Below are positions 1-13,023 of a stretch of DNA of 13,023 bases, in pieces. Source of the stretch: an uncultured archaeon (GTDB lineage: Archaea > Asgardarchaeota > Lokiarchaeia > Sigyniarchaeales > Promethearchaeaceae); assembly GCA_964426185.1 (NCBI GenBank), contig CAYRPF010000082.1, positions 1-13,023 on the forward strand. The letters are read 5' to 3'. Positions within the stretch are counted from its first letter, which is position 1. Every line of letters starts with the position of its first letter. The notes under the pieces are model-generated. The model was not told the DNA's origin, made no database searches, and worked only from the letters and a program-made list of their open reading frames with translations. The position numbers and the translations under genes were made by a program.

Positions 1-124
1 ATCTTCGCAGCTTTTTTATCACCTTCATATAGCATGGTACACCCCCACATGCGTGGGGAGAATTGTTTGACGACATCAAGCGAAAGATTCCTGGGCGGTA
101 CACCCCCACATGCGTGGGGAGAAT
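1..124 (-). CRISPR. Leader-proximal end of a type I-E CRISPR array (continues beyond the left edge)
   Basis: Identical 28-bp repeats at 36-63 and 97-124 (minus-strand reading ATTCTCCCCACGCATGTGGGGGTGTACC; hairpin CCCCAC-GCAT-GTGGGG), 61-bp period. Spacers of 33 bp at 64-96 and 3-35. Bases 1-2 (AT) match the expected end of the next repeat. Orientation taken from similarity to the E. coli I-E repeat and the position of the leader and cas2. Confidence 0.97.
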
Positions 125-322
125 ACTAACTTTTTCGCCCAATTTTCCAATTCGGAAGAAATTTTTAAAGATAAATTTTTTTAGTGATTTCCTTCCTCAG
201 CACTAATAATACAATAACATTTTCCTATTTTAAATATTTGGAGAAGAAAATTCGTTCGATATTTGCCAGTTTTTAGCTCTTTTGAACAGATGAATTTTCA
301 CAACTTCTAAATTTAATTAGTT
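125..322 (-). promoter_or_regulatory. CRISPR leader
   Basis: AT-rich non-coding 198 bp between the cas2 stop and the first repeat. Ends ...AAAAAGTTAGT at the repeat junction. TATA-like TTTAAAAA at 169-162 (minus). Confidence 0.8.
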
Positions 323-1501
323 TTAGAAAAGCACTTGTTCATCCAATCCTCCTGATTTTAACAAATAAAAATACAATCCTAAAATAATTTTCAAGAGATT
401 AAATCTTCCGATTGGAATGATATTCTTCTGAATTTGTGTAACTGCATCACCCTTAAACATTTGATAATATTCCGAAAATTTAGAGGAATATTGTAGCGTC
501 AAGTCTTGGTTACACTTAGAATTAAATAATTCAATTAATTCTTCAATGGTAGAAAAGTGTTCAGAAATATCATAGATTTTTAAGAATTCTGGTGGTGTAA
601 ATTTATTCTCCTTTGAAAGAAGCGAAAATTGGGAAAGAATTTTTTCCCGATGCATAAGAATGAGTTGATCGATGTTTTGGAAAAATGGCCAAAATTGAAA
701 TAACAATGCAGGAGCTTGGGATCTTTGTCTTGTCATATTAAATCCTTGATGAAAACTCAGAGTAGGACATTGTGTTTCTTGAGAAACATAAATTGAACAT
801 AGACCGATAACATTAACATAACCTTCAGCGGCTTTTGGAGAATAATCAGTGGTTTCCAAAGAGAAGCTCAAAATTTTTTCCGATTTTTTTTCAGGGTGAT
901 TTTTCAATTCCATATTCCATAGATCTAGACAAAATTTGCTTATATTTTGAATTTCTGATATTTCAGAGTGAGCCCAAACTCTTTCTGGGGGGTATTCAAA
1001 ATATGAAGATTTTGCGGCGTAGTTTGAAATATATTGGTTGTTTTCCAAACGGATGCTGAATGTTCGGGTAATTAAGTTGGGAGGAAAATTTTTCGGGGTG
1101 GGCCAGCTAATTTTTGCAGCCATACCGGGCTTTATATCCAGACGATTTGCAAAATATGTGAATGGATTGAATTTTGTAGAATTTGTTGAATTTTTTTTGG
1201 CATTATTAGTAGAAGGAGCAGTAGGTATTGTCATTAAATTAATTCCTTCGAAATTACGGGAGGTTCTACTGAACGATCCGATTGATTTGATTTGATATTT
1301 TTGTTCGTTAGCAGCGGGTTCAATAAAAATAGCACCTCCCTTAAGTATATTTTTAGATATCTTTTCCCAAAGAAGATCTCTAACTAGACGTGAAAGAGTT
1401 CCAATAAACACACCTGATTTTACTTCAATCATCCAGCGAGTAATTTCGCCCCTTAAACTGGCTGGAAATTTTTCGGTGATGAGAATAGATAATTTTGTCA
1501 T
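323..1501 (-). CDS. cas2: Type I-E Cas2 fused to a long C-terminal extension containing a degenerate RNase H-like (YprB/DEDD 3'-5' exonuclease-like) domain
   Basis: aa 1-93 carry Cas2e motifs (P.SLRGEITRWMIEVKSGVFIG, VRDLLW, NEQ.Y, R....FEG..L). The gene is directly downstream of cas1, with RBS-like GGAG upstream. aa 210-380 contain LSFSLETTD..., IYDI and GRFNLLKI, which align by eye with the FDIETTG, HIDL and YNxxDV motifs. The Cas2 call is firm; the C-terminal domain call is moderate. Confidence 0.92.
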   Translation of the reverse strand: MTKLSILITEKFPASLRGEITRWMIEVKSGVFIGTLSRLVRDLLWEKISKNILKGGAIFIEPAANEQKYQIKSIGSFSRTSRNFEGINLMTIPTAPSTNNAKKNSTNSTKFNPFTYFANRLDIKPGMAAKISWPTPKNFPPNLITRTFSIRLENNQYISNYAAKSSYFEYPPERVWAHSEISEIQNISKFCLDLWNMELKNHPEKKSEKILSFSLETTDYSPKAAEGYVNVIGLCSIYVSQETQCPTLSFHQGFNMTRQRSQAPALLFQFWPFFQNIDQLILMHREKILSQFSLLSKENKFTPPEFLKIYDISEHFSTIEELIELFNSKCNQDLTLQYSSKFSEYYQMFKGDAVTQIQKNIIPIGRFNLLKIILGLYFYLLKSGGLDEQVLF

Positions 1502-1522: not shown

Positions 1523-2542
1523 TTAATCACTTCTCTCAAGTTTCTCAAGTTTCTCAAGTTTCTCAAGTTTCTCATAATTAATGCCACCTTTTATGAGGCC
1601 CTCATCGGGATCCCAAATATCTCCAGCTACGGCTTCTCCTGCGTCAATTTTTAAATCCGAGAGCAAGGAGGGAATCGAATCTGCATTTTTGTCATCAGAA
1701 CGAGAGAAATCCAACAAGATATCAATATCTGGGAGAATTCGTTCAATTAAGTGAGTTTGATAAAATAAATCACGACAGGCTATTCGCACCCGTTGTTCTA
1801 AGTTAAAAGGACTTTCGGCAACCATCTGAAACACTAAAGGAATAATTATTTCTCCTTTGTAAAGGTCCCCAATATCGAATACAAACGAAAGCTGTTGCCC
1901 CGTATGAATGAAGCCTAATGCGGGTGAATAACCAGCAGACACAATGGCAGCATGACAGAGGCCATATAGACACGAATTTGCGATTGAAAGTGCGCGATTC
2001 AACGGATCACCTTCATCCCATTTTGTTGGATTATATTTTCTACCTTTCCATTCCAACCCTGCAGCTTCGGCTGCATCTTTATATATTTTTCGCATGCGGG
2101 CGCCTTCCATTCCCCGCATCTGTTTTATCGTTAAGTCGGGTGAGAGAGATTCTTTAAATCGCAACATGTACATGCGTCTTACTACCTCGGTGCGTAACTC
2201 TTTATCGGAAACTAATTTCGCTTGGTGAATTATTTTTTTAGCGGATCGTGTTTCTCCGGTTCCTAATGCATAAAATCGCACTCCATGTTCACCCAGCCAA
2301 CACACAAGACAACCATTCCGAGCCAACGATTGGATAGCAGAGTGAGTGATACTGGTTCCAGGGCCGAGAAATAATAGAGAAAGATTTGCACATGGTACAG
2401 GTGTTTTTCCAAATCGGTCAAAAATAGCGATAGCTTTGGAATCTTGTTCAATTTTACAGTGTTCTACATATAGATATGAAAGTCCGTCACGAAATTTGGG
2501 TAATTCACGTAAATTTTGGGGCATTTGAATTCCTTCCATCAT
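1523..2542 (-). CDS. cas1: Type I-E CRISPR-associated integrase Cas1
   Basis: Motifs LSYLYVE, LGPGTSITH, MRGMEGARMR (catalytic E), GYSPALGFIHTG (H) and SFVFDIGDLYK (D) are all intact. The true start may be the ATG at 2524 (GGAAGGA upstream). Confidence 0.98.
   Translation of the reverse strand: MMEGIQMPQNLRELPKFRDGLSYLYVEHCKIEQDSKAIAIFDRFGKTPVPCANLSLLFLGPGTSITHSAIQSLARNGCLVCWLGEHGVRFYALGTGETRSAKKIIHQAKLVSDKELRTEVVRRMYMLRFKESLSPDLTIKQMRGMEGARMRKIYKDAAEAAGLEWKGRKYNPTKWDEGDPLNRALSIANSCLYGLCHAAIVSAGYSPALGFIHTGQQLSFVFDIGDLYKGEIIIPLVFQMVAESPFNLEQRVRIACRDLFYQTHLIERILPDIDILLDFSRSDDKNADSIPSLLSDLKIDAGEAVAGDIWDPDEGLIKGGINYEKLEKLEKLEKLERSD
1535..1574. repeat. 9-bp tandem repeat (CTCAAGTTT x4 plus partial) in the cas1 3' end, encoding (EKL)4
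   Basis: Perfect copies at 1535, 1544, 1553 and 1562, then CTCA. Confidence 0.95.
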
Positions 2543-2976: not shown

Positions 2977-3843
2977 TTACGACAGCATCAACAATCCGAA
3001 TCCATAGGCTTTCGCAGGACCGATACCATTGATTAAAGTTTGAATAAAGGTTTCGGGATCAGTGACGACCAAAATTCCATCAAAAATAACCGAAAAGAAG
3101 GTCAATTTGATCCTTTTCGCTTTTGATTTCTTATTTAATTTCTCATCTTTGGTTTCATCATTTAGTACTTTGTACCCTGCAAATTTTCCTTCGGGTATCC
3201 CAACTACGTTAATTTTACTCAGATCTAAACCGGAATCCGCACCATTTTCAACACCGTTTTTTGAAGATGAAAAGTGGGAAAGTACTTGCTCAACAGAAAA
3301 GCGATTTGGATGATAAAGATCTTTTTTCAACTGGACTTCTTGTATTTTAAAGCCACCGCTTTCAGCCTTGCGAATCAACCACTTAATCTGATCTTCTTCC
3401 TTGTAAAGCGGCATTCTTCTACCGTTGGATTTCTTGCCTGCTAAGCGTTCTTTTTTAGTGGTAGTACCCACCTTCTTCGTGACGTTTGCTTTCAACCTGA
3501 AGTGAAATTTCTGCCCACTGGCAAATTTAAAGGTAGAATAATCGACCTCTTTAACTGCAACTCCTGGGTTTTCATCTGATGGATTGGTGTTAGTGAAATT
3601 TACCGTATATCCTGGTTTTAAGTGGGACCAATTCGGTTTTTCTTTAGATTGAACTAGCAGTTTTGGAAAAATGTCACGTTTAGATGCATCCAGATAATAA
3701 AGTACTTGAAGATTTTCCCTACATGACTCCGAATGTTGTCCAGAAAAGGCGTTCATTATAGTTCGATGCATCTCATGACAGTTTCCCAGATCACGACGGG
3801 CTTTAGAATTACGTGGATTTAGATACAAACATGAAAGATACAT
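2977..3843 (-). CDS. cas6e: Type I-E crRNA-processing endoribonuclease Cas6e (Cse3/CasE)
   Basis: MYLSCL.L N-terminus, MHRTIM catalytic His, LLVQS...P.W, F.FRLKAN, and C-terminal Gly-rich loop GIGPAKAYGFGLL. Confidence 0.97.
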   Translation of the reverse strand: MYLSCLYLNPRNSKARRDLGNCHEMHRTIMNAFSGQHSESCRENLQVLYYLDASKRDIFPKLLVQSKEKPNWSHLKPGYTVNFTNTNPSDENPGVAVKEVDYSTFKFASGQKFHFRLKANVTKKVGTTTKKERLAGKKSNGRRMPLYKEEDQIKWLIRKAESGGFKIQEVQLKKDLYHPNRFSVEQVLSHFSSSKNGVENGADSGLDLSKINVVGIPEGKFAGYKVLNDETKDEKLNKKSKAKRIKLTFFSVIFDGILVVTDPETFIQTLINGIGPAKAYGFGLLMLS

Positions 3844-3844
3844 T

Positions 3845-4615
3845 TTATTTCACCTCCGGAGAATTTCCACTTTGTTTGTCGCTTGTAGCGGTAATTTCAG
3901 CCATCCCAGGGTTTTTCATGTATTTCACTTGTACACGACGGGCTCTGTACATTCGACTCCGCTGTAAAGTTATTTCGTCATAACGAATTTCAGACCCCGA
4001 AATATCTTCCAGCACACAACGAAGTAAAGCTGGAGGTTCATTTCGGGGATCTTTGCGTTTTGGGAGATATGAAGGAAAATATGATCGAGGTTCCCAAGGA
4101 ATCCGAGCCAATGCATCATCTATAGAAGCATATTCGCGAGTTAAGCCTTCAAATACCGGACGAGTCGGAACACAACTTTTTCGCCCCAGATATAGCAGCC
4201 ATTGTGGTGATTGAAGAGCTTCTGCTATTTTCTTCAGTAGTTCACTATCACCTTGCAATACGACTAAAAAAGAAGCGTCTTCAAGATACATTTTCGGAGT
4301 CAGAATGGTATTCGATTCTTTTCTTTCTTTTCTATCCGCTTGTAGTACCTTTCCTGTAATTGTCTGAAAATCCCGAAGCAAAGTTCCTGGGATTTCAGTG
4401 CGGACACCCATTAATAATCGGGAAGATATTTTTTCTAATTCTGCATCAAATCGAGGCAAGCCTAAAGCACAACCAATTAATCCCACGATTCCACTTTTAG
4501 AAGGTTCCGTTCCAGTATCCCGCATATCCCAGCGAGATTCAAGCCCCCATGATTGGAGCGGTCCTTCTAACCGCATTACTAACAAAAGGGGGTTTTGTTC
4601 AGTAATTTTAATCAC
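3845..4615 (-). CDS. cas5e: Type I-E Cascade subunit Cas5e (CasD)
   Basis: RLEGPLQSWG, R.T...PSKSGIVGLIGCALG, DFQT, YLEDASF, LYLGRKSCVP. The start overlaps the cas7 stop; exact start codon uncertain. Confidence 0.97.
   Translation of the reverse strand: MIKITEQNPLLLVMRLEGPLQSWGLESRWDMRDTGTEPSKSGIVGLIGCALGLPRFDAELEKISSRLLMGVRTEIPGTLLRDFQTITGKVLQADRKERKESNTILTPKMYLEDASFLVVLQGDSELLKKIAEALQSPQWLLYLGRKSCVPTRPVFEGLTREYASIDDALARIPWEPRSYFPSYLPKRKDPRNEPPALLRCVLEDISGSEIRYDEITLQRSRMYRARRVQVKYMKNPGMAEITATSDKQSGNSPEVK
3850..3857 (-). promoter_or_regulatory. Ribosome-binding site GGAGGTGA for cas6e
   Basis: GGAGGTGA lies 6 nt upstream of the ATG at 3843. GGTGA/GTGA motifs also precede the ATGs at 8202 and 5765. 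Confidence 0.8.
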
Positions 4616-5774
4616 CTTGAAGAACAGATGTCAAAGAATCAACTAATTCTTGAATATTTTCTTTCTTTTCAAAATTTTTGGGGATTGACTCCTCAAGATT
4701 GTTGAAATCACGACCTTCAAACCAGAATTGGTGGGTTGCCTCAAGATTGAAACGTTTAGAAAGAGTATTGATGTGATTTACTAGCTTTTCAACAGAAACT
4801 TCTTCTAAATCCTTCTTACCATAAGGTGAAGCAGGAGACACAAAGGCATTTGCAAAACTAACAGGACATTTCATAGGGCGAACTACCACAGCCACTACTG
4901 CAGGTAATTGATGAGCAGCGAAAGTGTTTTGCTTACCAGACGGTGAAGTAAAAATGGCCGCTTTCAAGAATGCTTCAATGGTTTTAACCATTAAATTTCG
5001 GAGTTCAGAATCATTTTTGCTCTCAAAATTGTCTATAAATTGCTCTGTATCGAAAGAGAAATATTTATAGAAGCAAGATGAATTAAATTCGATATCACCC
5101 ATCATTGCCGAGCCTTGATCCTCCATATCTCCTCCTCTTTGTTGAAGATCATCAACGGCAGTAAAGAAGTCAAATTCATTGAATATCTTGTTGGTTGAAA
5201 TTGCATGAGCAACCTGCATGGAAGCTTCTTTATCGACGAAAGCTTCGGAGGTGATCATACGACCAAACAAGGAAATGTCTGCAGTAATAGGAATGATCCC
5301 CATCTTCTTTATTTCATTTTGAAGATCTTTTGCCTTCTTTTTCTTGAAATCAGCAATATCTTTGCTATTTTTGATAGCTTTTTCAATAACATCAGTTACC
5401 TTCTCTATATCTGCCTGTGAGAAGAACATAATTTGCTTTGTTTTATAATCTTTTGTTTCTTTTGCATCTTTATTTCCAAATCCAGTTGCTTTTTGAGCAG
5501 CTTCTATAGCAAAATCTTCTGAAATACCTCGTTCAATCAATTTTTCCTTAACGAGATCAGGTAAATGACGGGTTCTAATTCCAATTCCAAAATCTTTCAT
5601 GGTTTCTTGGAAAATGGGTGATTTTCGAATGGCATATTTCAAACTTTGACTCGAAACACGAGCTCGAGGATAACCCCCGAAATTGCAGCGTTTAGGACTC
5701 CCAGTATCATCTCGATTGAGATTATTGGGAGCATAGTTGTGGAGCATGTGAATTTCTACTAACATGGTTTTCAC
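4608..5774 (-). CDS. cas7e: Type I-E Cascade backbone subunit Cas7 (Cse4/CasC)
   Basis: EIHML...PNNLNRDDTGSPK...FGG..RARVSSQSLK, DISLFGRM, QVAHAIST, DFFTAVDD, PSGKQNTFA, SFANAF. Likely start is the ATG at 5765. Confidence 0.98.
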   Translation of the reverse strand: MKTMLVEIHMLHNYAPNNLNRDDTGSPKRCNFGGYPRARVSSQSLKYAIRKSPIFQETMKDFGIGIRTRHLPDLVKEKLIERGISEDFAIEAAQKATGFGNKDAKETKDYKTKQIMFFSQADIEKVTDVIEKAIKNSKDIADFKKKKAKDLQNEIKKMGIIPITADISLFGRMITSEAFVDKEASMQVAHAISTNKIFNEFDFFTAVDDLQQRGGDMEDQGSAMMGDIEFNSSCFYKYFSFDTEQFIDNFESKNDSELRNLMVKTIEAFLKAAIFTSPSGKQNTFAAHQLPAVVAVVVRPMKCPVSFANAFVSPASPYGKKDLEEVSVEKLVNHINTLSKRFNLEATHQFWFEGRDFNNLEESIPKNFEKKENIQELVDSLTSVLQGD

Positions 5775-5813: not shown

Positions 5814-6506
5814 TTAATTAGTTTCATCTTTACTTTCTGATGAAGAATCTCGTGACGCTCCATAATAGGCGCGTGCCCATTCTTTTTGAACTCTTCGACT
5901 ATTATCTAAATCGCGACTCCAGAAATAAAGATCTGTTAGCAAATTATACCATGAAATACCAACTTGCTTACTGGCAACCAAACTAACACATTGGCGTAAA
6001 CGGTAGGAAAATTCTCGAAATGAATCCAAATCACCGTATTTTGGATCAAATGAACTAGAATCCAAGGAACTCTCCAATAAATTTTGGAATCTATGATCAA
6101 TACTATCGGGTTCTCCAAATTGCTTCTTAGTTAAAGCCATCGATTTTCCAAAGTTCCCCGTTCCAGACAGAGGTTGGATAGGGAATAAAGTCGCGATTAA
6201 ATAATAGATTGGTTCTAATCGGCTATTTTGCTCTGAATAAGGCAAAATCTTGTAAAACGCTGACATTGCTGGAATTGAGTCTCCTAATATGGTTCCAGAA
6301 GCGCGTTTAAGTACGGCATACATGCCTCTATTTGAATCTTCCAACTTTTCTAACGAAGAAAGAAATTTTCGAAAGACTTCTGTTTTATGGTGAGTTCTTT
6401 CTTTCAATTTTTTTTCTTCTCCCGTGGATTTATTCGAAGAAGCTTGCTGCATTTTTTGCGATTTTTTTGATTTTTGCTTATTTTGCGAGGGGTTAACACT
6501 TTCCAT
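5814..6506 (-). CDS. cse2: Type I-E Cascade small subunit Cas11 (Cse2/CasB)
   Basis: Lies between cas8e and cas7. Motifs G..A.LKR, NFG.S, RF..LL, RLRQ...L, W..L..DL..W and V...WA..YY. AGGAG RBS. About 40-aa K/S/Q-rich N-terminal extension. Confidence 0.93.
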   Translation of the reverse strand: MESVNPSQNKQKSKKSQKMQQASSNKSTGEEKKLKERTHHKTEVFRKFLSSLEKLEDSNRGMYAVLKRASGTILGDSIPAMSAFYKILPYSEQNSRLEPIYYLIATLFPIQPLSGTGNFGKSMALTKKQFGEPDSIDHRFQNLLESSLDSSSFDPKYGDLDSFREFSYRLRQCVSLVASKQVGISWYNLLTDLYFWSRDLDNSRRVQKEWARAYYGASRDSSSESKDETN

Positions 6507-6615: not shown

Positions 6616-8214
6616 TTACGGTTGTGCTGGCATTAATCGCTTAGCTAACCCATAAACCTTGGGTCTGTAATCATTCCGAACTTCTTCAGCTTTTTTTAAA
6701 TATTCAGCTGAACCATCGAAAGAATCTAAGATCTCCTCTACCACCGAATTTGCAGTTTTTACCAGTAAATCACCCCAAAAAGTTTTAATTTTTTCACTAA
6801 CGTTCGGGTCATCTAAATTCTCTTTTAGAAAATGCACTACTTTCTTTTCAAACGGAAGATGCAGTCGATTCCAGTAACTGGTGGTCGCTTGTTCCCTAAT
6901 TAATTTGAATCCACTGGAATTGCCTTTAGTATCACGAGGGTACAAATGTTTCAAAGATGTATTAATATAATACTCTACTAATTCTGCAGCATCAATTAAT
7001 TCTTGAATTATTTGGCCAGAATGTTCAGAAAAGACGATTTCCTTTGGAAGTGATAAGATAGAACGGCGCCAATTCTTTAATTTGGCTTTATCAGATTCGA
7101 GTACATATAAATTTAAGGAAACTCGCTCCAATTCTAGATCTTGAGAATCTTGGTTAATTTCTCCAAGTTGCTTAATTATTGTAGGACGATTGAATCGAAT
7201 GTGTGTTTTTTCATTTTCATAATCTTTTTCGGTTAATAGCATCAAGGGGCCGTAGTCACGCCAAAAATCCTTGCCAGGGGTATACCGAATAGGAAATCTA
7301 CCCTTTTTTGTGGTTCGATAAGCAACGTTTGGATCACGCCAGATATTGGCATCATCAACAAATTTCCAACCGGGTTTGAATACGATTTGCTTTACCAAAA
7401 TTTGATTGGGCTCATTAGAATACCTACAAACACCCTTCTCTTTCATCGGAGTCAAAACACAATAACGCGGCATCCAGGTTAAACCGTGGAGATATGAAGT
7501 TACCATTTTAATTGCCTTAGATTCTACAAATTCATTTGAACGCCACGGAACTTCAAAGGGTTCAGCAGGAAAATCTGTATAGCCCGTATATGTATTTAAT
7601 AGAAGTGTTTGAAAAAGGTTTTTACCCTCTATCAATTCATAAATCGGCGGAGTTCCGTTAATACTTGGTGAGAACCCGACACCCCCCGCGGTACTAAAGG
7701 CAGGCAAAGCACATAAAGCTCGAGCGCAAATTTTTGCACTGACTGCGATTTCATCTTCAAAAAAATGATGAAAAAATATAGGATTAATCCCAGATGGTAA
7801 ATGGTGGAAGAGCTTACACACCGATCTTAAATCCTTTTTTTCTATATTATGAGGAGATCCTTGGTAAAAAGGATGCTCGGGATCAAAAAGATCGAAGCGA
7901 TTTTTAATCGATATCAATTCATTTGGAATTGTTTCGTCAAATTCCCCTCTTTCCAGAAGGTCTTTGAGATCTTCCAAGTTTGAGATTTTGTAACAATCCA
8001 TGATAAGGGCAATAAGGAATCGGTATATCCCAAATTCATGCTCAGGTGAAGCATCTTGGATCTGTTTTATATGATGAGCATGCCGGAAAACTTCGATGAT
8101 ATTAAGCTCCCTTGATTTTCCTGTCTCGTCTAAAATCGGAATCCAAGCTTCTTCCAGTAGGTTAAAATGCACTTCAGGAAGTTCTACAGTGTTGTTAGTC
8201 ATTTTTTTCACCAC
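6616..8214 (-). CDS. cas8e: Type I-E Cascade large subunit Cas8e (Cse1/CasA)
   Basis: FNLLEEAWIP, RFDLFDPEHPFYQ, ARAL, GG.G...S, G.NLFQTLLLN, TW.PR, DP and WRD motifs. Likely start is the ATG at 8202 (GGTGA upstream). Confidence 0.96.
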   Translation of the reverse strand: MVKKMTNNTVELPEVHFNLLEEAWIPILDETGKSRELNIIEVFRHAHHIKQIQDASPEHEFGIYRFLIALIMDCYKISNLEDLKDLLERGEFDETIPNELISIKNRFDLFDPEHPFYQGSPHNIEKKDLRSVCKLFHHLPSGINPIFFHHFFEDEIAVSAKICARALCALPAFSTAGGVGFSPSINGTPPIYELIEGKNLFQTLLLNTYTGYTDFPAEPFEVPWRSNEFVESKAIKMVTSYLHGLTWMPRYCVLTPMKEKGVCRYSNEPNQILVKQIVFKPGWKFVDDANIWRDPNVAYRTTKKGRFPIRYTPGKDFWRDYGPLMLLTEKDYENEKTHIRFNRPTIIKQLGEINQDSQDLELERVSLNLYVLESDKAKLKNWRRSILSLPKEIVFSEHSGQIIQELIDAAELVEYYINTSLKHLYPRDTKGNSSGFKLIREQATTSYWNRLHLPFEKKVVHFLKENLDDPNVSEKIKTFWGDLLVKTANSVVEEILDSFDGSAEYLKKAEEVRNDYRPKVYGLAKRLMPAQP

Positions 8215-8374: not shown

Positions 8375-11300
8375 TTACTTAATCTTTTGAACAATAAAAC
8401 CTTCTTCTTTTGTATATTTAAGTTTTACTAATTCATCTTCCTTATTTATTCCCTCCCAAATTAAGCTGTCTGATGAACCGGTTGGTTCGGACTTCGCGAT
8501 AATTACGAAGTAGCCATACATCCATTTTGGAGTCCGACAAATGGGTTCATATCCTTGCTCTGGTTTAACATTTTCAATGCTGGAGTACCTGATAGATAAG
8601 GAACGATTCAAAAGTTCCTCTTTCCATTTCTTCGAAACTCCTGTTTTATTTTCCAATTGGGTATATTTTTGATGAATCAAGCTTCCTTCTTCGATCAAAA
8701 TTACCGCACACGAATCTTCAATTAATCGAGTTTTTGCTTTAAATTTGGATTTTGTTTCATGATCTTCACCTTCTTCGAATGCATCTCGATAAACCTCCGC
8801 ATAACGATATGAATCCCTAACTGGAGGGGGAATTAAATATTGAAGTGTTTGTCTACTGGATTTTTCTTCACTTTCTTTGTATTTTCTAAAAAGATCGTTT
8901 AATTCACTCTGGACTGATGAGAGATAACAAGGTTTAGCACCACGAGGAGATGGAGGGAACGATATTTTCGGTTGATAAACCCGTTCAATCAATTCTCTTA
9001 GGTCTTGGGGAAATTTCACTTCAAATTGAAAACCGTTCTGAGTCAAAGCATCGAGTAAAATTTGGGTTCGAATGAGTAGGTACGGTGAATAAACATAACG
9101 AGACTTTCCGGTGATTTTCAAAATTTTTCCCGAAGTCTTTGATAAATCTGTCGAAACTGACGAATCTAACGAATCTGATGCATTATTCAACCATGATTTT
9201 TCATTGATAATAGGTCCAAAATAAAAAAATTCCCAAAATTCATCAGCCGAATTATCTTCAACAATTTTTCTTCCAACCGTATTATTTTGGGAGAAAGAAG
9301 CCCCAAAAATGAATATGCACGGAAAAGGATAAAGAGATGCAGTTGGTCGATTTTGGCGAGAATGTCGCCATACCCTTCCCATTCTTTGAACCAATAAATC
9401 GATTGGAGCCAATTCAGTAAACATCCCATCAAAATCTAAATCTAAACTCTGTTCAACTACCTGAGTTGCAACTAAAATTGTATTTGCAGGCCGAATAAGC
9501 TTTCCATCACCATTGTTTTCTGATAAAGCCTTCCCAAAATATTTTTTAACCTGATTTTCGATTAAATTGCGATCTTTGACTGTATAACGGCTGTGAAAAA
9601 GCAATACTTGGGTATTTTTCGGAACCCAAGACTCTCTTAACGAAGAACTTCCATCTAATACTTCTTTTAACATCTTGTAGAGTTCTTGTGCTGTTGAAAC
9701 AGTGTTTATCAGAACGCAGTGACATCCAAAATTCTTCTCGTGTTCGGGAACATCTTGACTTTTTAGTATTTTATATAAAGTATTCACGATAACGGAACCC
9801 ATTCGAAATACATTACCTTCTGTTCCAGGTAAATTACAAATACGATAGGTTTTTTGTTCCAGAGAAATCGAGGGATCTTCGGTAAGACTGCCAATATTTC
9901 CCTCACTATCCACAAATGAAATCATAGGATAAGGTTCTAATGGAATATCCGAGCCAGACTCTGGTATTTCAAGTAATTCATCATTTTTTTGACCAATACT
10001 TTGATTTGAGTGAAATTGTTGATCTAAACCATTTAAAACACCATCTAAAACACTATCTAAAACACCATATTTTTGTTTGGCTTCTAAATAATGATTAAAT
10101 ATGTGCTCCTTTTTATTTTCAGGAAGTGTAGCCGAGAGAAGAATCAAAGGAATATCTAATACTGCAGCCCATTCTAACAAACGGTCGAAGATTTCCATCA
10201 TATAGGCATCGTAGGCGTGAACCTCATCAACAATTAATATTTTTCCGGCTAATCCTAATAATCTGAGAAATCCGAATTTTACGTTTAAAACTGACATTAA
10301 TGATTGATCAATAGTACCTACTGCCAAAGGGCTTAATAGGGCACGCCTTTTCGGCTCAAACCAACGAATTGCATCAAAATAATCTTGCATGACATCTTGA
10401 TGATGAGGATCAATAGAACCAAAGACATCAGATTTGGTCATTGTCAACTTATCTACGATCCACGAACGCCCATGCACTAATTGATTGTAAAAAGTAAAAA
10501 ATCGAAAAGCGGGATTGGAATTTTTTAAAAATTCTTGAATCCGGTGATACATCTGATTCGACGTAGCCGTTGTAGGTAAAGCTATATAAAAGCCAGAAAG
10601 ATACGATTGCCTTGAATTTCTTCCTGCCACCATCATTTTACCTGCAATGGTTAGGGCAGCTTCAGTTTTTCCATCACCCATTGGAGCCTCGAGAATCACT
10701 ATTTTTTCCTGTCCAGTTAGCCTATCCGACAATTTCTGAATGGGGAATAGATTTGTGAAATTATTTTGCGCAAAAAGAGTTCTCAATGTAACATTTTCCG
10801 GTAAAAAATCGGAAAAACGGGTAATAAAACCCATTTTCTCTAAAACTGCCTTCGCTTGCACACGGGCTTCTTCAATATGTTGCTGCAAAATCTCTTTCAA
10901 ATCTCCTTCCGAAGGAATCTGGTTGAGACTTTGCCAGTGAAATAATTCCTCATTGGATGCAAGCCAATCCGCCAAAACTAAAAGACTTTGCAGCGATATT
11001 CCCACGATACTTGCATGTTTAATCTGAATTTTATTCCAAACATTTGGGTGGCAATCTAAAATCTCTAGAAAAAGGTTCCAAATATTTTGACGAATAGATC
11101 TCCACTCATTTTTAATAACTTGATGCTCTTCACTGTTTTGAACATCAAAGCGCCCATGATGACCTAAAATAATTTTTCGAATTATTGATTTCACTCGCCT
11201 GGGAATTTGGTAAGAAGAAGATAAATCACTAAAAAGTTTCATTCCTAAACCTGGATGATTGCTCTTTTCAGAAGTAAAATTTATGGGAAATCCATAGCGT

Positions 11301-11749
11301 TCCAAGGCAGTTGTAATTATACTTCCCCCGCGATTTTGAAAGTGGGGAGATATTTTCCCCAAATCGTGCATGGCAAATAAGAACCAAACAAATGATTGCA
11401 CCTCTTTTTCCTCGCTGAAATTATTCTTCTCAAAAGAAATATTATTATTACTATGCAAATGAGATGAAAAATCCTCCAAGCGAATCAATTGCCAGATCTT
11501 ATTAAAAACACTCCGAAAGGCACTTATTCTTGCCAATTCTTGCCCAAATACCATTACATCTGCCATATGATAAACAGCAGGATAAAAATCATATAAAGAA
11601 TTTGGAGTATCACCAGTGGTTTTTCCCCAAAGACTTAACAAACTCAGGCCGTTTGTATTGAAACTCACTTTTGTTCTCCGTGATTTTATCTTACCTATAG
11701 AGATCCGATTTGCATTTTTAAATTCATCGCTTCTTTGTTCATTATCCAT
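8375..11749 (-). CDS. cas3: CRISPR-associated HD nuclease/SF2 helicase Cas3
   Basis: HD domain: LWGKT, HMADV, HDLGK, GHHG, LADWLAS. Helicase: APMGDGKTEAA, LPT, DEVH, SAT, HSR, ATQVVEQSLDLDFD, QRMGRVWRH. All motifs intact. The true start may be the GTG at 11668 (GGAG upstream). Confidence 0.98.
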   Translation of the reverse strand: MDNEQRSDEFKNANRISIGKIKSRRTKVSFNTNGLSLLSLWGKTTGDTPNSLYDFYPAVYHMADVMVFGQELARISAFRSVFNKIWQLIRLEDFSSHLHSNNNISFEKNNFSEEKEVQSFVWFLFAMHDLGKISPHFQNRGGSIITTALERYGFPINFTSEKSNHPGLGMKLFSDLSSSYQIPRRVKSIIRKIILGHHGRFDVQNSEEHQVIKNEWRSIRQNIWNLFLEILDCHPNVWNKIQIKHASIVGISLQSLLVLADWLASNEELFHWQSLNQIPSEGDLKEILQQHIEEARVQAKAVLEKMGFITRFSDFLPENVTLRTLFAQNNFTNLFPIQKLSDRLTGQEKIVILEAPMGDGKTEAALTIAGKMMVAGRNSRQSYLSGFYIALPTTATSNQMYHRIQEFLKNSNPAFRFFTFYNQLVHGRSWIVDKLTMTKSDVFGSIDPHHQDVMQDYFDAIRWFEPKRRALLSPLAVGTIDQSLMSVLNVKFGFLRLLGLAGKILIVDEVHAYDAYMMEIFDRLLEWAAVLDIPLILLSATLPENKKEHIFNHYLEAKQKYGVLDSVLDGVLNGLDQQFHSNQSIGQKNDELLEIPESGSDIPLEPYPMISFVDSEGNIGSLTEDPSISLEQKTYRICNLPGTEGNVFRMGSVIVNTLYKILKSQDVPEHEKNFGCHCVLINTVSTAQELYKMLKEVLDGSSSLRESWVPKNTQVLLFHSRYTVKDRNLIENQVKKYFGKALSENNGDGKLIRPANTILVATQVVEQSLDLDFDGMFTELAPIDLLVQRMGRVWRHSRQNRPTASLYPFPCIFIFGASFSQNNTVGRKIVEDNSADEFWEFFYFGPIINEKSWLNNASDSLDSSVSTDLSKTSGKILKITGKSRYVYSPYLLIRTQILLDALTQNGFQFEVKFPQDLRELIERVYQPKISFPPSPRGAKPCYLSSVQSELNDLFRKYKESEEKSSRQTLQYLIPPPVRDSYRYAEVYRDAFEEGEDHETKSKFKAKTRLIEDSCAVILIEEGSLIHQKYTQLENKTGVSKKWKEELLNRSLSIRYSSIENVKPEQGYEPICRTPKWMYGYFVIIAKSEPTGSSDSLIWEGINKEDELVKLKYTKEEGFIVQKIK
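10022..10066. repeat. 12-bp in-frame tandem repeat in cas3 (encodes GVLD-SVLD-GVLN-GLD)
   Basis: ATTTAAAACACC (10031), ATCTAAAACACT (10043), ATCTAAAACACC (10055) and a 9-bp partial ATCTAAACC (10022). Confidence 0.85.
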
Positions 11750-11751
11750 TT

Positions 11752-11795
11752 AACAAGTTTATAAATGATTATTTGAAAATATTCAAACATGATTA
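11752..11795. promoter_or_regulatory. Candidate bidirectional promoter/operator between cas3 and the mini-array
   Basis: Palindromic TATA-like TTTATAAA (11758-11765), inverted repeat TTTGAA-AATA-TTCAAA (11772-11787) and flanking direct repeat ATGATTA (11765-11771, 11789-11795). Confidence 0.5.
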
Positions 11796-11884
11796 ATTCT
11801 CCCCACGCATGTGGGAGTGTACCATGAAGCATACTATCTATTGAAAGGGATATTAAATTCTCCCCACGCATGTGGGGGTGTACC
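11796..11884 (+). CRISPR. Single-spacer CRISPR mini-array, divergent from cas3 and inverted relative to the main array
   Basis: Repeat 11796-11823 (one G>A change at 11816) and perfect repeat 11857-11884. The 33-bp spacer 11824-11856 is ATGAAGCATACTATCTATTGAAAGGGATATTAA. Same 61-bp period as the main array; no third repeat 61 bp away on either side. Confidence 0.95.
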
Positions 11885-12145
11885 AAGTTGTCTTTGCTTA
11901 TTCTAGAAATATGGCTCGGGAAGAATCGATTTCAAATTTAGATATGCAGAGTAGTTTATCATAAAAAATACACGTATTGACTTAATAAATATAAAAATTG
12001 AGAAAAAGCAGCAGACTAATTCAATATCAAGACTAACTTCGACAACTTGTATTGCAATAAGAATAAAAGGTTGGGATTTCGGATTTAAAAATAACTGGGG
12101 ATGAATTCATTGAATAAAAGCTTCGATAAAAAGACAAATCGAAAT

Positions 12146-13023
12146 TTATTCACTGGAATTAAAAACTTCTTTTGCCTTTTTTTGGATTTTTTTCTGGGCT
12201 TTTCTATCATTGTGATAATATGCAACAAGAATCCGATGATGTGTGGATAAATTTCTTATGGAAGAATTTCGTCTATTTTGTAGATATTCAATATATATCC
12301 CTGATGGTCTTTTCTTTAAAATTCGAATTGATTTGAAATCTTGTTCTTCATCGATAGACGGGGTGAGCGGATGAGTTATTCTTATTGGTTTTCCAGGATC
12401 ATGCCTCAGAAATGACCAATGATGTGAAATTTCAGAATCTTGTTGGAATTCGTTAAATAATATGTTCTCTTTTTCACATATTTCGCCCTTTTTAATTTGC
12501 TTTTCAGATATTTTTGTAAATAAATCAAATTTAAAACAATTTTTAATAGGTGTTCGTCTTCTTATTGTATCATATAAGTAATTTAATTCTTCAATTTGTG
12601 ATTGGTTTAGCCCGGTATTTGTTTTTTGTTTTAATATTTCTTGAATGGTTGTGAAAAATGAAGCTTCGGTTATTCTACAAAATTCATTCTCATACCAATC
12701 AGCATCTTTCGTTTTAAAATCCTCCTTTGCAGGTAGAATAAAACCATTGGTAAGGTTTGGATTTGATTTCTGGATATAATTTTGATACAATTTATGAAGA
12801 ACTAAATCATAACATACTGAGGTTTTGTGGATATAAACAATTTTATACATCTGATATCTCGAATATAAAAAATCTTCCAAAGCATCTTGAGATTTTTCAG
12901 AATAACATATTTTATTTTCATAAAGATTAACGAATTTACATATTCTATTAATATCAATATTCCCATAAGGTACTCCTGCAAAATAAGAATCTCGTAACAA
13001 ATAGTCCAATCGATCTGCATCTG
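12146..13023 (-). CDS. HD-superfamily phosphohydrolase (dNTP triphosphohydrolase/SAMHD1-like), C-terminal part; 5' end lies outside the window
   Basis: The frame is open to the window edge and reads DADRLDYLLRDSYFAGVPYG...RYQMYKIVYIHKT, the conserved post-HD motifs of this family. The listed start at 13009 is an internal TTG (Leu). Confidence 0.85.
   Translation of the reverse strand, partial: DADRLDYLLRDSYFAGVPYGNIDINRICKFVNLYENKICYSEKSQDALEDFLYSRYQMYKIVYIHKTSVCYDLVLHKLYQNYIQKSNPNLTNGFILPAKEDFKTKDADWYENEFCRITEASFFTTIQEILKQKTNTGLNQSQIEELNYLYDTIRRRTPIKNCFKFDLFTKISEKQIKKGEICEKENILFNEFQQDSEISHHWSFLRHDPGKPIRITHPLTPSIDEEQDFKSIRILKKRPSGIYIEYLQNRRNSSIRNLSTHHRILVAYYHNDRKAQKKIQKKAKEVFNSSE

Follow-up and report, generated by a model that had tools for sequence, protein, structure and literature searches.

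Upstream of cas3 in a type I-E CRISPR-Cas locus of a Lokiarchaeial genome, two repeats enclose a single spacer. Is this mini-array a guide set apart for one purpose, be it the regulation of its neighbours or defence against a fixed competitor, or is it what remains of an ordinary second array?

Organisation of the locus

The window, as we call the whole stretch of DNA that was analysed, is the entire 13,023-bp contig C82 of a metagenome bin of 3.26 Mb in 155 contigs. The host is a Lokiarchaeial MAG of the genus Ca. Harpocratesius, which has been placed in Lokiarchaeia (Wu et al. 2022, PMC8813620). The closest relatives of its Cas3 are found in Ca. Harpocratesius and other Asgard archaea. Every cas gene of the type I-E locus is carried by the minus strand, and the features referred to below are the following:

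1-124, minus strand: leader-proximal end of the main I-E array (repeats 35-63 and 96-124), which leaves the contig at base 1
125-322, minus strand: main-array leader, 198 bp, from cas2 to the first repeat
323-1501, minus strand: Cas2 fusion, 392 aa
1523-2542, minus strand: cas1
2977-3843, minus strand: cas6e
3845-4615, minus strand: cas5
4608-5774, minus strand: cas7
5814-6506, minus strand: cse2
6616-8214, minus strand: cse1
8375-11749, minus strand: cas3 (HD nuclease and helicase) of the type I-E operon, longest ORF
11668-11749, minus strand: first 27 cas3 codons, or 5′ UTR if the alternative start GTG 11668 is used
11750-11795, no strand: gap of 46 bp between ATG and R1, with no main-leader homology
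11796-11824, plus strand: first repeat (R1), 29 nt, G>A at 11816 (repeat position 21, hairpin base)
11825-11856, plus strand: single spacer, 32 nt
11857-11885, plus strand: second repeat (R2), an exact match to the main-array repeat and the start of a segment duplicated on contig C41
11886-12008, plus strand: 123-bp trailer flank, paralogous to C41:2838-2958 but truncated (on C41, the native region ahead of a conserved small ORF)
12020-12073, minus strand: 54-bp scrap of a non-I-E cas3, encoding QPFILIAIQVVEVSLDIE, with about 85% DNA identity to the cas3 of the same-genus genome G001

The main array interrupts contigs in the assembly. Contig C108 begins within an array of the same repeat and holds its trailer end with seven repeats, and a JGI contig (L032) is 98.9% identical to C108 over 5.5 kb, array trailer end included. 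On C108 (36-429), the first base is G in repeats 1-4 and A in the three final ones, as well as in the leader-end repeats of C82; the array seems to be composed of blocks of differing history. As side observations on the neighbouring genes, the ORF at 323-1501 matches the Cas2 family in residues 6-89 only, the rest having no Pfam match, and the C-terminus of Cas1 contains a 9-bp tandem repeat encoding (EKL)x4 (window 1523-1574).

On its other side, the mini-array is followed by an HD-domain gene (12146-13021) that is single-copy, chromosomal and conserved, so that the site is framed by this gene and the chromosomal cas3. We considered whether the HD-domain ORF is a cas3 remnant and rejected this, as it has no similarity to the Cas3 of G001, and orthologues of 60% identity are encoded at other sites in G001 and in G011, with no adjoining CRISPR. 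Nothing was found for a virus- or plasmid-borne mini-array either: the site is chromosomal, and the spacer has no target in the collections searched below.

Structure of the mini-array

The first-pass annotation had described a repeat-spacer-repeat unit inverted relative to the cas genes and to the main array, and this description proved right wherever it could be checked. Two type I-E repeats and one spacer, 61 nt from start to start, lie on the plus strand just upstream of cas3. The sense of the repeats corresponds to the leader-to-array sense of the main array, hence the mini-array is directed away from cas3. R2 matches both main-array repeats (35-63 and 96-124, minus strand) and repeats on C108 exactly, and R1 has a single mismatch, G21A; the variant repeat is indeed the first of the two, as had been noted. 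The 61-nt period and the 32-nt spacer are common to the mini-array and all eight other assembled units, and the spacer is preceded by an A at repeat position 29, like most spacers of the genome. This length and this nucleotide indicate that the spacer was acquired normally by Cas1-Cas2.

The canonical repeat is predicted to form a 7-bp hairpin (positions 5-11 with 16-22, −11.9 kcal/mol) whose stem, CCCCAC/GTGGGG, is the same on either strand. For R1, the predicted fold reaches −8.4 kcal/mol in a slipped register. By analogy with the Cas6e proteins of E. coli and Thermus, we take position 21 to be the nucleotide that closes the stem beside the cut.

A 58-aa antisense ORF runs through part of R2, the spacer, the variant codon of R1 and the 5′ end of cas3, and it is identical on an 800-nt ENA contig. 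As this contig shares both the spacer and the R1 variant, the structure is not peculiar to the C82 assembly. In addition, a 7,691-nt JGI/NCBI contig encodes a Cas3 with a single residue changed (T75).

No further decayed repeat was found in the window by a genome scan allowing up to 9 mismatches; apart from the copy on C41 described below, this relaxed scan yielded just two isolated single matches on other contigs. No Rfam family matches the window or related loci. [quoted passage not shown] Upstream of cas3, no repeat is present in the I-E loci of three further Asgard genomes (G251, G014 and G003), where Cas3 identity is 36-39%; in G251, whose repeat is a related I-E one, an array of 24 repeats lies downstream of cas2. 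The same-genus genome G001 carries a different CRISPR type with 37-nt repeats. On a 38,448-nt NCBI contig of Harpocratesius with a 59%-identical cas3 (protein WP_457557381.1), an antisense ORF (P0123) reveals an array of at least five repeats, which, judged by the peptides that the repeats encode, is built from the same repeat. We also examined a terminal I-E array on an IMG/VR contig (L058:4178-4757) and set it aside as unrelated: its repeat has a near-identical core but starts with GTTTT, not ATTCT, and its spacers are GC-rich. This array is probably that of a different host and not a viral one.

Absence of leader homology and probable loss of acquisition

When the main leader was aligned with the 200 nt upstream of R1, the local alignment score was below the shuffle mean, and in register 19 of 60 positions are identical. 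The flank sequences quoted in the first-pass annotation are correct, and its view that the upstream flank does not resemble the main leader stands over these 200 nt, where no similarity rises above shuffled controls. Its description of the mini-array as non-adaptive is supported as well, by the missing leader homology, by an assembly as one clean path unlike that of the main array, and by the G21A change in R1 but not in R2. Since the change of R1 is absent from R2, no spacer seems to have been acquired after it arose. The spacer is unchanged on the ENA contig and differs at the paralogous array end on C41.

The start of cas3 and the gap to the mini-array

A distance of 46 bp between the mini-array and cas3 had been reported. 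It holds for ATG 11749, the start of the longest cas3 ORF. The homologue P0002, a Cas3 of 59% identity, starts opposite V28, that is GTG 11668. This GTG has a GGAG (11676-11679) 7 nt upstream, as do cse2, cas6e and cas2, while ATG 11749 has none. Such a motif precedes 17% of the genome's genes with a free upstream region versus 4% in a control window. On these sequence grounds GTG 11668 is slightly more likely than ATG 11749 to be the start of cas3; the gap would then be 127 bp and Cas3 27 residues shorter.

The 46-bp gap holds a palindromic TATA-like box, TTTATAAA, at 11758-11765, which matches the consensus and lies 30 nt ahead of R1. A scan of this gap for bacterial-type promoters found nothing. 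Given archaeal spacing, the TTTATAAA box could serve as a promoter for both strands.

A paralogous array end on a second contig

The relaxed repeat scan revealed a second one-spacer I-E mini-array at C41:2748-2837, beside an orphan non-I-E cas6. Its repeats are decayed, one by six substitutions and one by a deletion of 2 nt, and its spacer is unrelated to that of C82. Its last repeat and the adjoining 123-bp flank are 91.4% identical to window positions 11857-12008 over 152 bp. On C41, the flank runs on for about 300 bp into a region 78-84% identical to G011 and G002. There, the homologues of the flank precede a conserved 58-60-aa ORF and have no CRISPR nearby. Since the homology continues into G011 and G002 at C41 only, the C41 flank is native, and the copy in the window is derived and truncated. 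We had considered the flank as a CRISPR leader; this was rejected because its homologues in G011 and G002 lack nearby repeats and precede the small ORF.

The region on C41 has peculiarities of its own. The 58-60-aa ORF (L038:3057-3233; L041:1218-1400), with its conserved upstream region, is present in this genome, G002 and G011 and has no Pfam match. A 233-bp direct duplication, 99.6% identical (C41:2506-2738 and 3372-3604, on L038), brackets the mini-array and the small-ORF region, and one of its copies reaches into the 3′ end of a gene for a 1001-aa NYN-domain protein.

In the window, the non-I-E cas3 scrap starts twelve bases past the flank end at 12008 and contains the helicase motif QVVEVSLDI. 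Sequence comparison resolves the 260 bp beyond R2 into a patchwork of rearrangement debris, and the I-E locus seems to occupy the ruins of a non-I-E CRISPR-Cas locus that was there before. Which of C41 and C82 came first in these events is deduced from the homology of the flanks. As two copies of one array end carry differing spacers, their ancestor had at least two spacers, or else spacers were turned over.

The two copies also differ in how well their repeats are kept. By hand count, with G011 and G002 as outgroups, the window lineage shows about five changes in the 123-bp flank. The repeats, also counted by hand, show one change in 58 nt against about 2.4 expected from the flank (P about 0.3), which is in keeping with neutral evolution. 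The near-perfect repeats of C82, compared with the decayed copy on C41, could also go back to gene conversion by the main array or to selection.

A stranded second array as the preferred reading

Altogether, we consider the mini-array to be an ordinary but stranded second type I-E array, a one-spacer remnant, with a probability of about 65%. The first-pass annotation had mentioned the remnant of a once longer array as its alternative, and it is this alternative that the paralogous array end with a different spacer on C41 favours. An array with no leader-like sequence would no longer acquire spacers. Transcription, if any, might start for instance from the TATA-like box upstream of R1. Cas6e would then be expected to cut R2 normally, whereas G21A, by disrupting the C6-G21 pair that closes the stem, should lower its efficiency at R1. 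A single standard 61-nt crRNA would result and direct Cascade and Cas3 to a foreign element, and the mini-array would have no dedicated regulatory role. If transcribed, it would thus give the cell one extra ordinary guide.

The target of the spacer and the fixed-guide alternative

Comparing the spacer with the host genome and with viral databases had been proposed as a check. No target was found in its own genome, in IMG/VR, phage records, plasmids or JGI metagenome contigs, nor in 399 other Asgard genomes with up to three mismatches. These negative searches are uninformative, because three control spacers likewise have no match in IMG/VR. In the host, the best match is a 14-mer at the seed end of the spacer (C6:28169-28182; E about 0.2). 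It lies about 650 codons into a gene of the N6-methyltransferase/Eco57I type, and we took it as a chance match and not as a target.

These searches bear on the main reading of the first-pass annotation, a non-adaptive guide maintained to counter a fixed competitor (a virus, a plasmid or an integrated element); its single spacer would be co-expressed with cas3. The near-perfect repeats beside the decay of the C41 copy, the same spacer and R1 variant on the ENA contig, an assembly that shows no heterogeneity, unlike that of the main array, and the well-placed TATA-like box all speak for such a guide. The lack of a target carries no weight here for the reason just given. However, the preservation of the repeats remains within neutral expectation, the site is missing from the three other Asgard I-E loci, and the paralogue with another spacer indicates that the spacer content at this array end was not fixed. 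We therefore regard a fixed guide as unlikely, though it is the alternative that fares best.

A bolder proposal, which we hold to be very unlikely, is that the mini-array and cas3 share the palindromic TATA box, so that a fixed guide would always be made together with the nuclease, and that G21A would tune or delay processing by Cas6e. If true, this would place a hard-wired sentinel guide, or a switch sensed by Cas6e, in the control region of cas3, where it would outlive the turnover of the main array.

The regulatory alternative

The first-pass annotation had favoured a dedicated guide with a possible regulatory function. A crRNA-like RNA of the kind of CreR, CreA or the mini-arrays of Shmakov et al. 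would guide Cascade, by partial complementarity, to a cas promoter or to a toxin gene nearby and thereby repress it. The position next to cas3 and the opposite orientation, as in the published I-E and I-F1 mini-arrays, fit such a role, as does the absence of an acquisition-competent leader. In published regulatory mini-arrays, the upstream repeat is intact and the downstream one degraded, the spacer has a PAM-flanked, seed-anchored match of 10 bp or more in a cas8, cas10d or cas6 promoter, and the orientation is opposite to cas3 (Shmakov et al. 2023, PMC10120712). Of these three features, the mini-array of C82 shares the orientation only. Its spacer is full length, and its variant repeat upstream and perfect repeat downstream are the reverse of the published pattern.

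For autoregulation of the cas genes, no seed match was found in the leader, the cas3-cse1 gap, the cas6e-cas1 gap or the region upstream of cas3. Between the genes of the window, the spacer matches 8 of the 10 seed positions at best and never as a contiguous seed, whereas ordinary spacers (a comparison set of eight from the same genome) reach up to 9 of 10. Likewise, there is no match with a PAM and seed within 1 kb either side of the mini-array. No adjacent small toxin gene with a promoter matched by the spacer was found, and the duplicated flank beside the mini-array retains no ORF. A CreTA-like pairing with the flank was looked for and not found; a 10-mer shared by spacer positions 9-18 and C41:2980-2989 is not seed-anchored. 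The 14-mer in the host lies inside the methyltransferase ORF and, with its E value of about 0.2, does not point to regulation either. With no PAM and seed match in the cas promoters or the adjoining 1 kb, and with a decay pattern opposite to the published one, the regulatory role that had been proposed finds no support, and we judge it highly improbable. A tidy repeat-spacer-repeat unit beside cas3 invites a regulatory story, and caution is advisable because the defining tests fail here.

Cis-acting element or assembly artefact

The mini-array might also act in cis on the expression of cas3. If cas3 were transcribed from further upstream, its 5′ UTR would contain two antisense repeat hairpins, or sense and antisense transcripts would interfere. 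This would agree with the stem being identical on both strands, with a strong TATA-like run on the minus strand at about 11985-12000 in the duplicated flank and, if ATG 11749 is the start, with the lack of obvious room for a classical promoter. However, GTG 11668 with its GGAG and the TATA box at 11758-11765 make a simpler promoter layout, and the flank is a truncated copy of the upstream region of another gene. We consider a cis-acting role very improbable indeed.

Finally, a collapsed or chimeric join through CRISPR repeats is conceivable in a metagenome bin whose main array does interrupt contigs, but the unique flanks on either side, the private variant in R1 and the independent ENA contig that encodes the same R2-spacer-R1-cas3 junction make an assembly artefact a negligible concern.

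Comparison with known systems

Inverted second arrays that flank type I cas operons are known, for example the CRISPR1 and CRISPR2 arrays of the I-F system of Pseudomonas aeruginosa, and in I-E loci. They have their own leaders and many spacers. Like them, the mini-array of C82 lies on the cas3 side of the operon, is inverted relative to the array downstream of cas2 and uses the same repeat; unlike them, it has one spacer and no recognisable leader.

The paralogue on C41 shares with it the repeat family, the single spacer, the divergence from a cas gene and the homologous last repeat with its 123-bp flank. The C41 copy differs by its decayed repeats, its other spacer and its native, full-length flank.

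In the haloarchaeal I-B systems, CreA and CreR combine degenerate repeats with a pseudo-spacer that partly matches the adjacent toxin or cas promoter (PMC10120712). The C82 mini-array resembles CreTA and CreR in being archaeal, crRNA-like and adjacent to cas genes, with two repeat-like elements, but in contrast to them no adjacent target was found for its spacer.

Stand-alone repeats and mini-arrays on the cas3 side are reported to be common, if sporadic, in I-E loci. About 8% of archaeal I-E loci were found to have mini-arrays, and 25-29% of the flanks of cas3 to have repeat-like sequences (PMC10120712). With the cas3-side mini-arrays of I-E, I-D and I-F1 systems described by Shmakov et al. 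(2023), the C82 mini-array shares two repeats and one spacer in an untranslated region by cas3, an orientation opposite to this gene and the lack of an acquisition-competent leader. In the published I-E cases, the mini-array lies between cas3 and cas8e, its downstream repeat is degraded and its spacer matches the cas8 promoter over at least 10 bp with a PAM. The array of C82 lies upstream of cas3, its downstream repeat is perfect, its spacer is of full length and no such match was found. The locus adds a documented cas3-side mini-array, of a kind that has already been described, in an archaeal (Asgard) type I-E system, which is a rare one.
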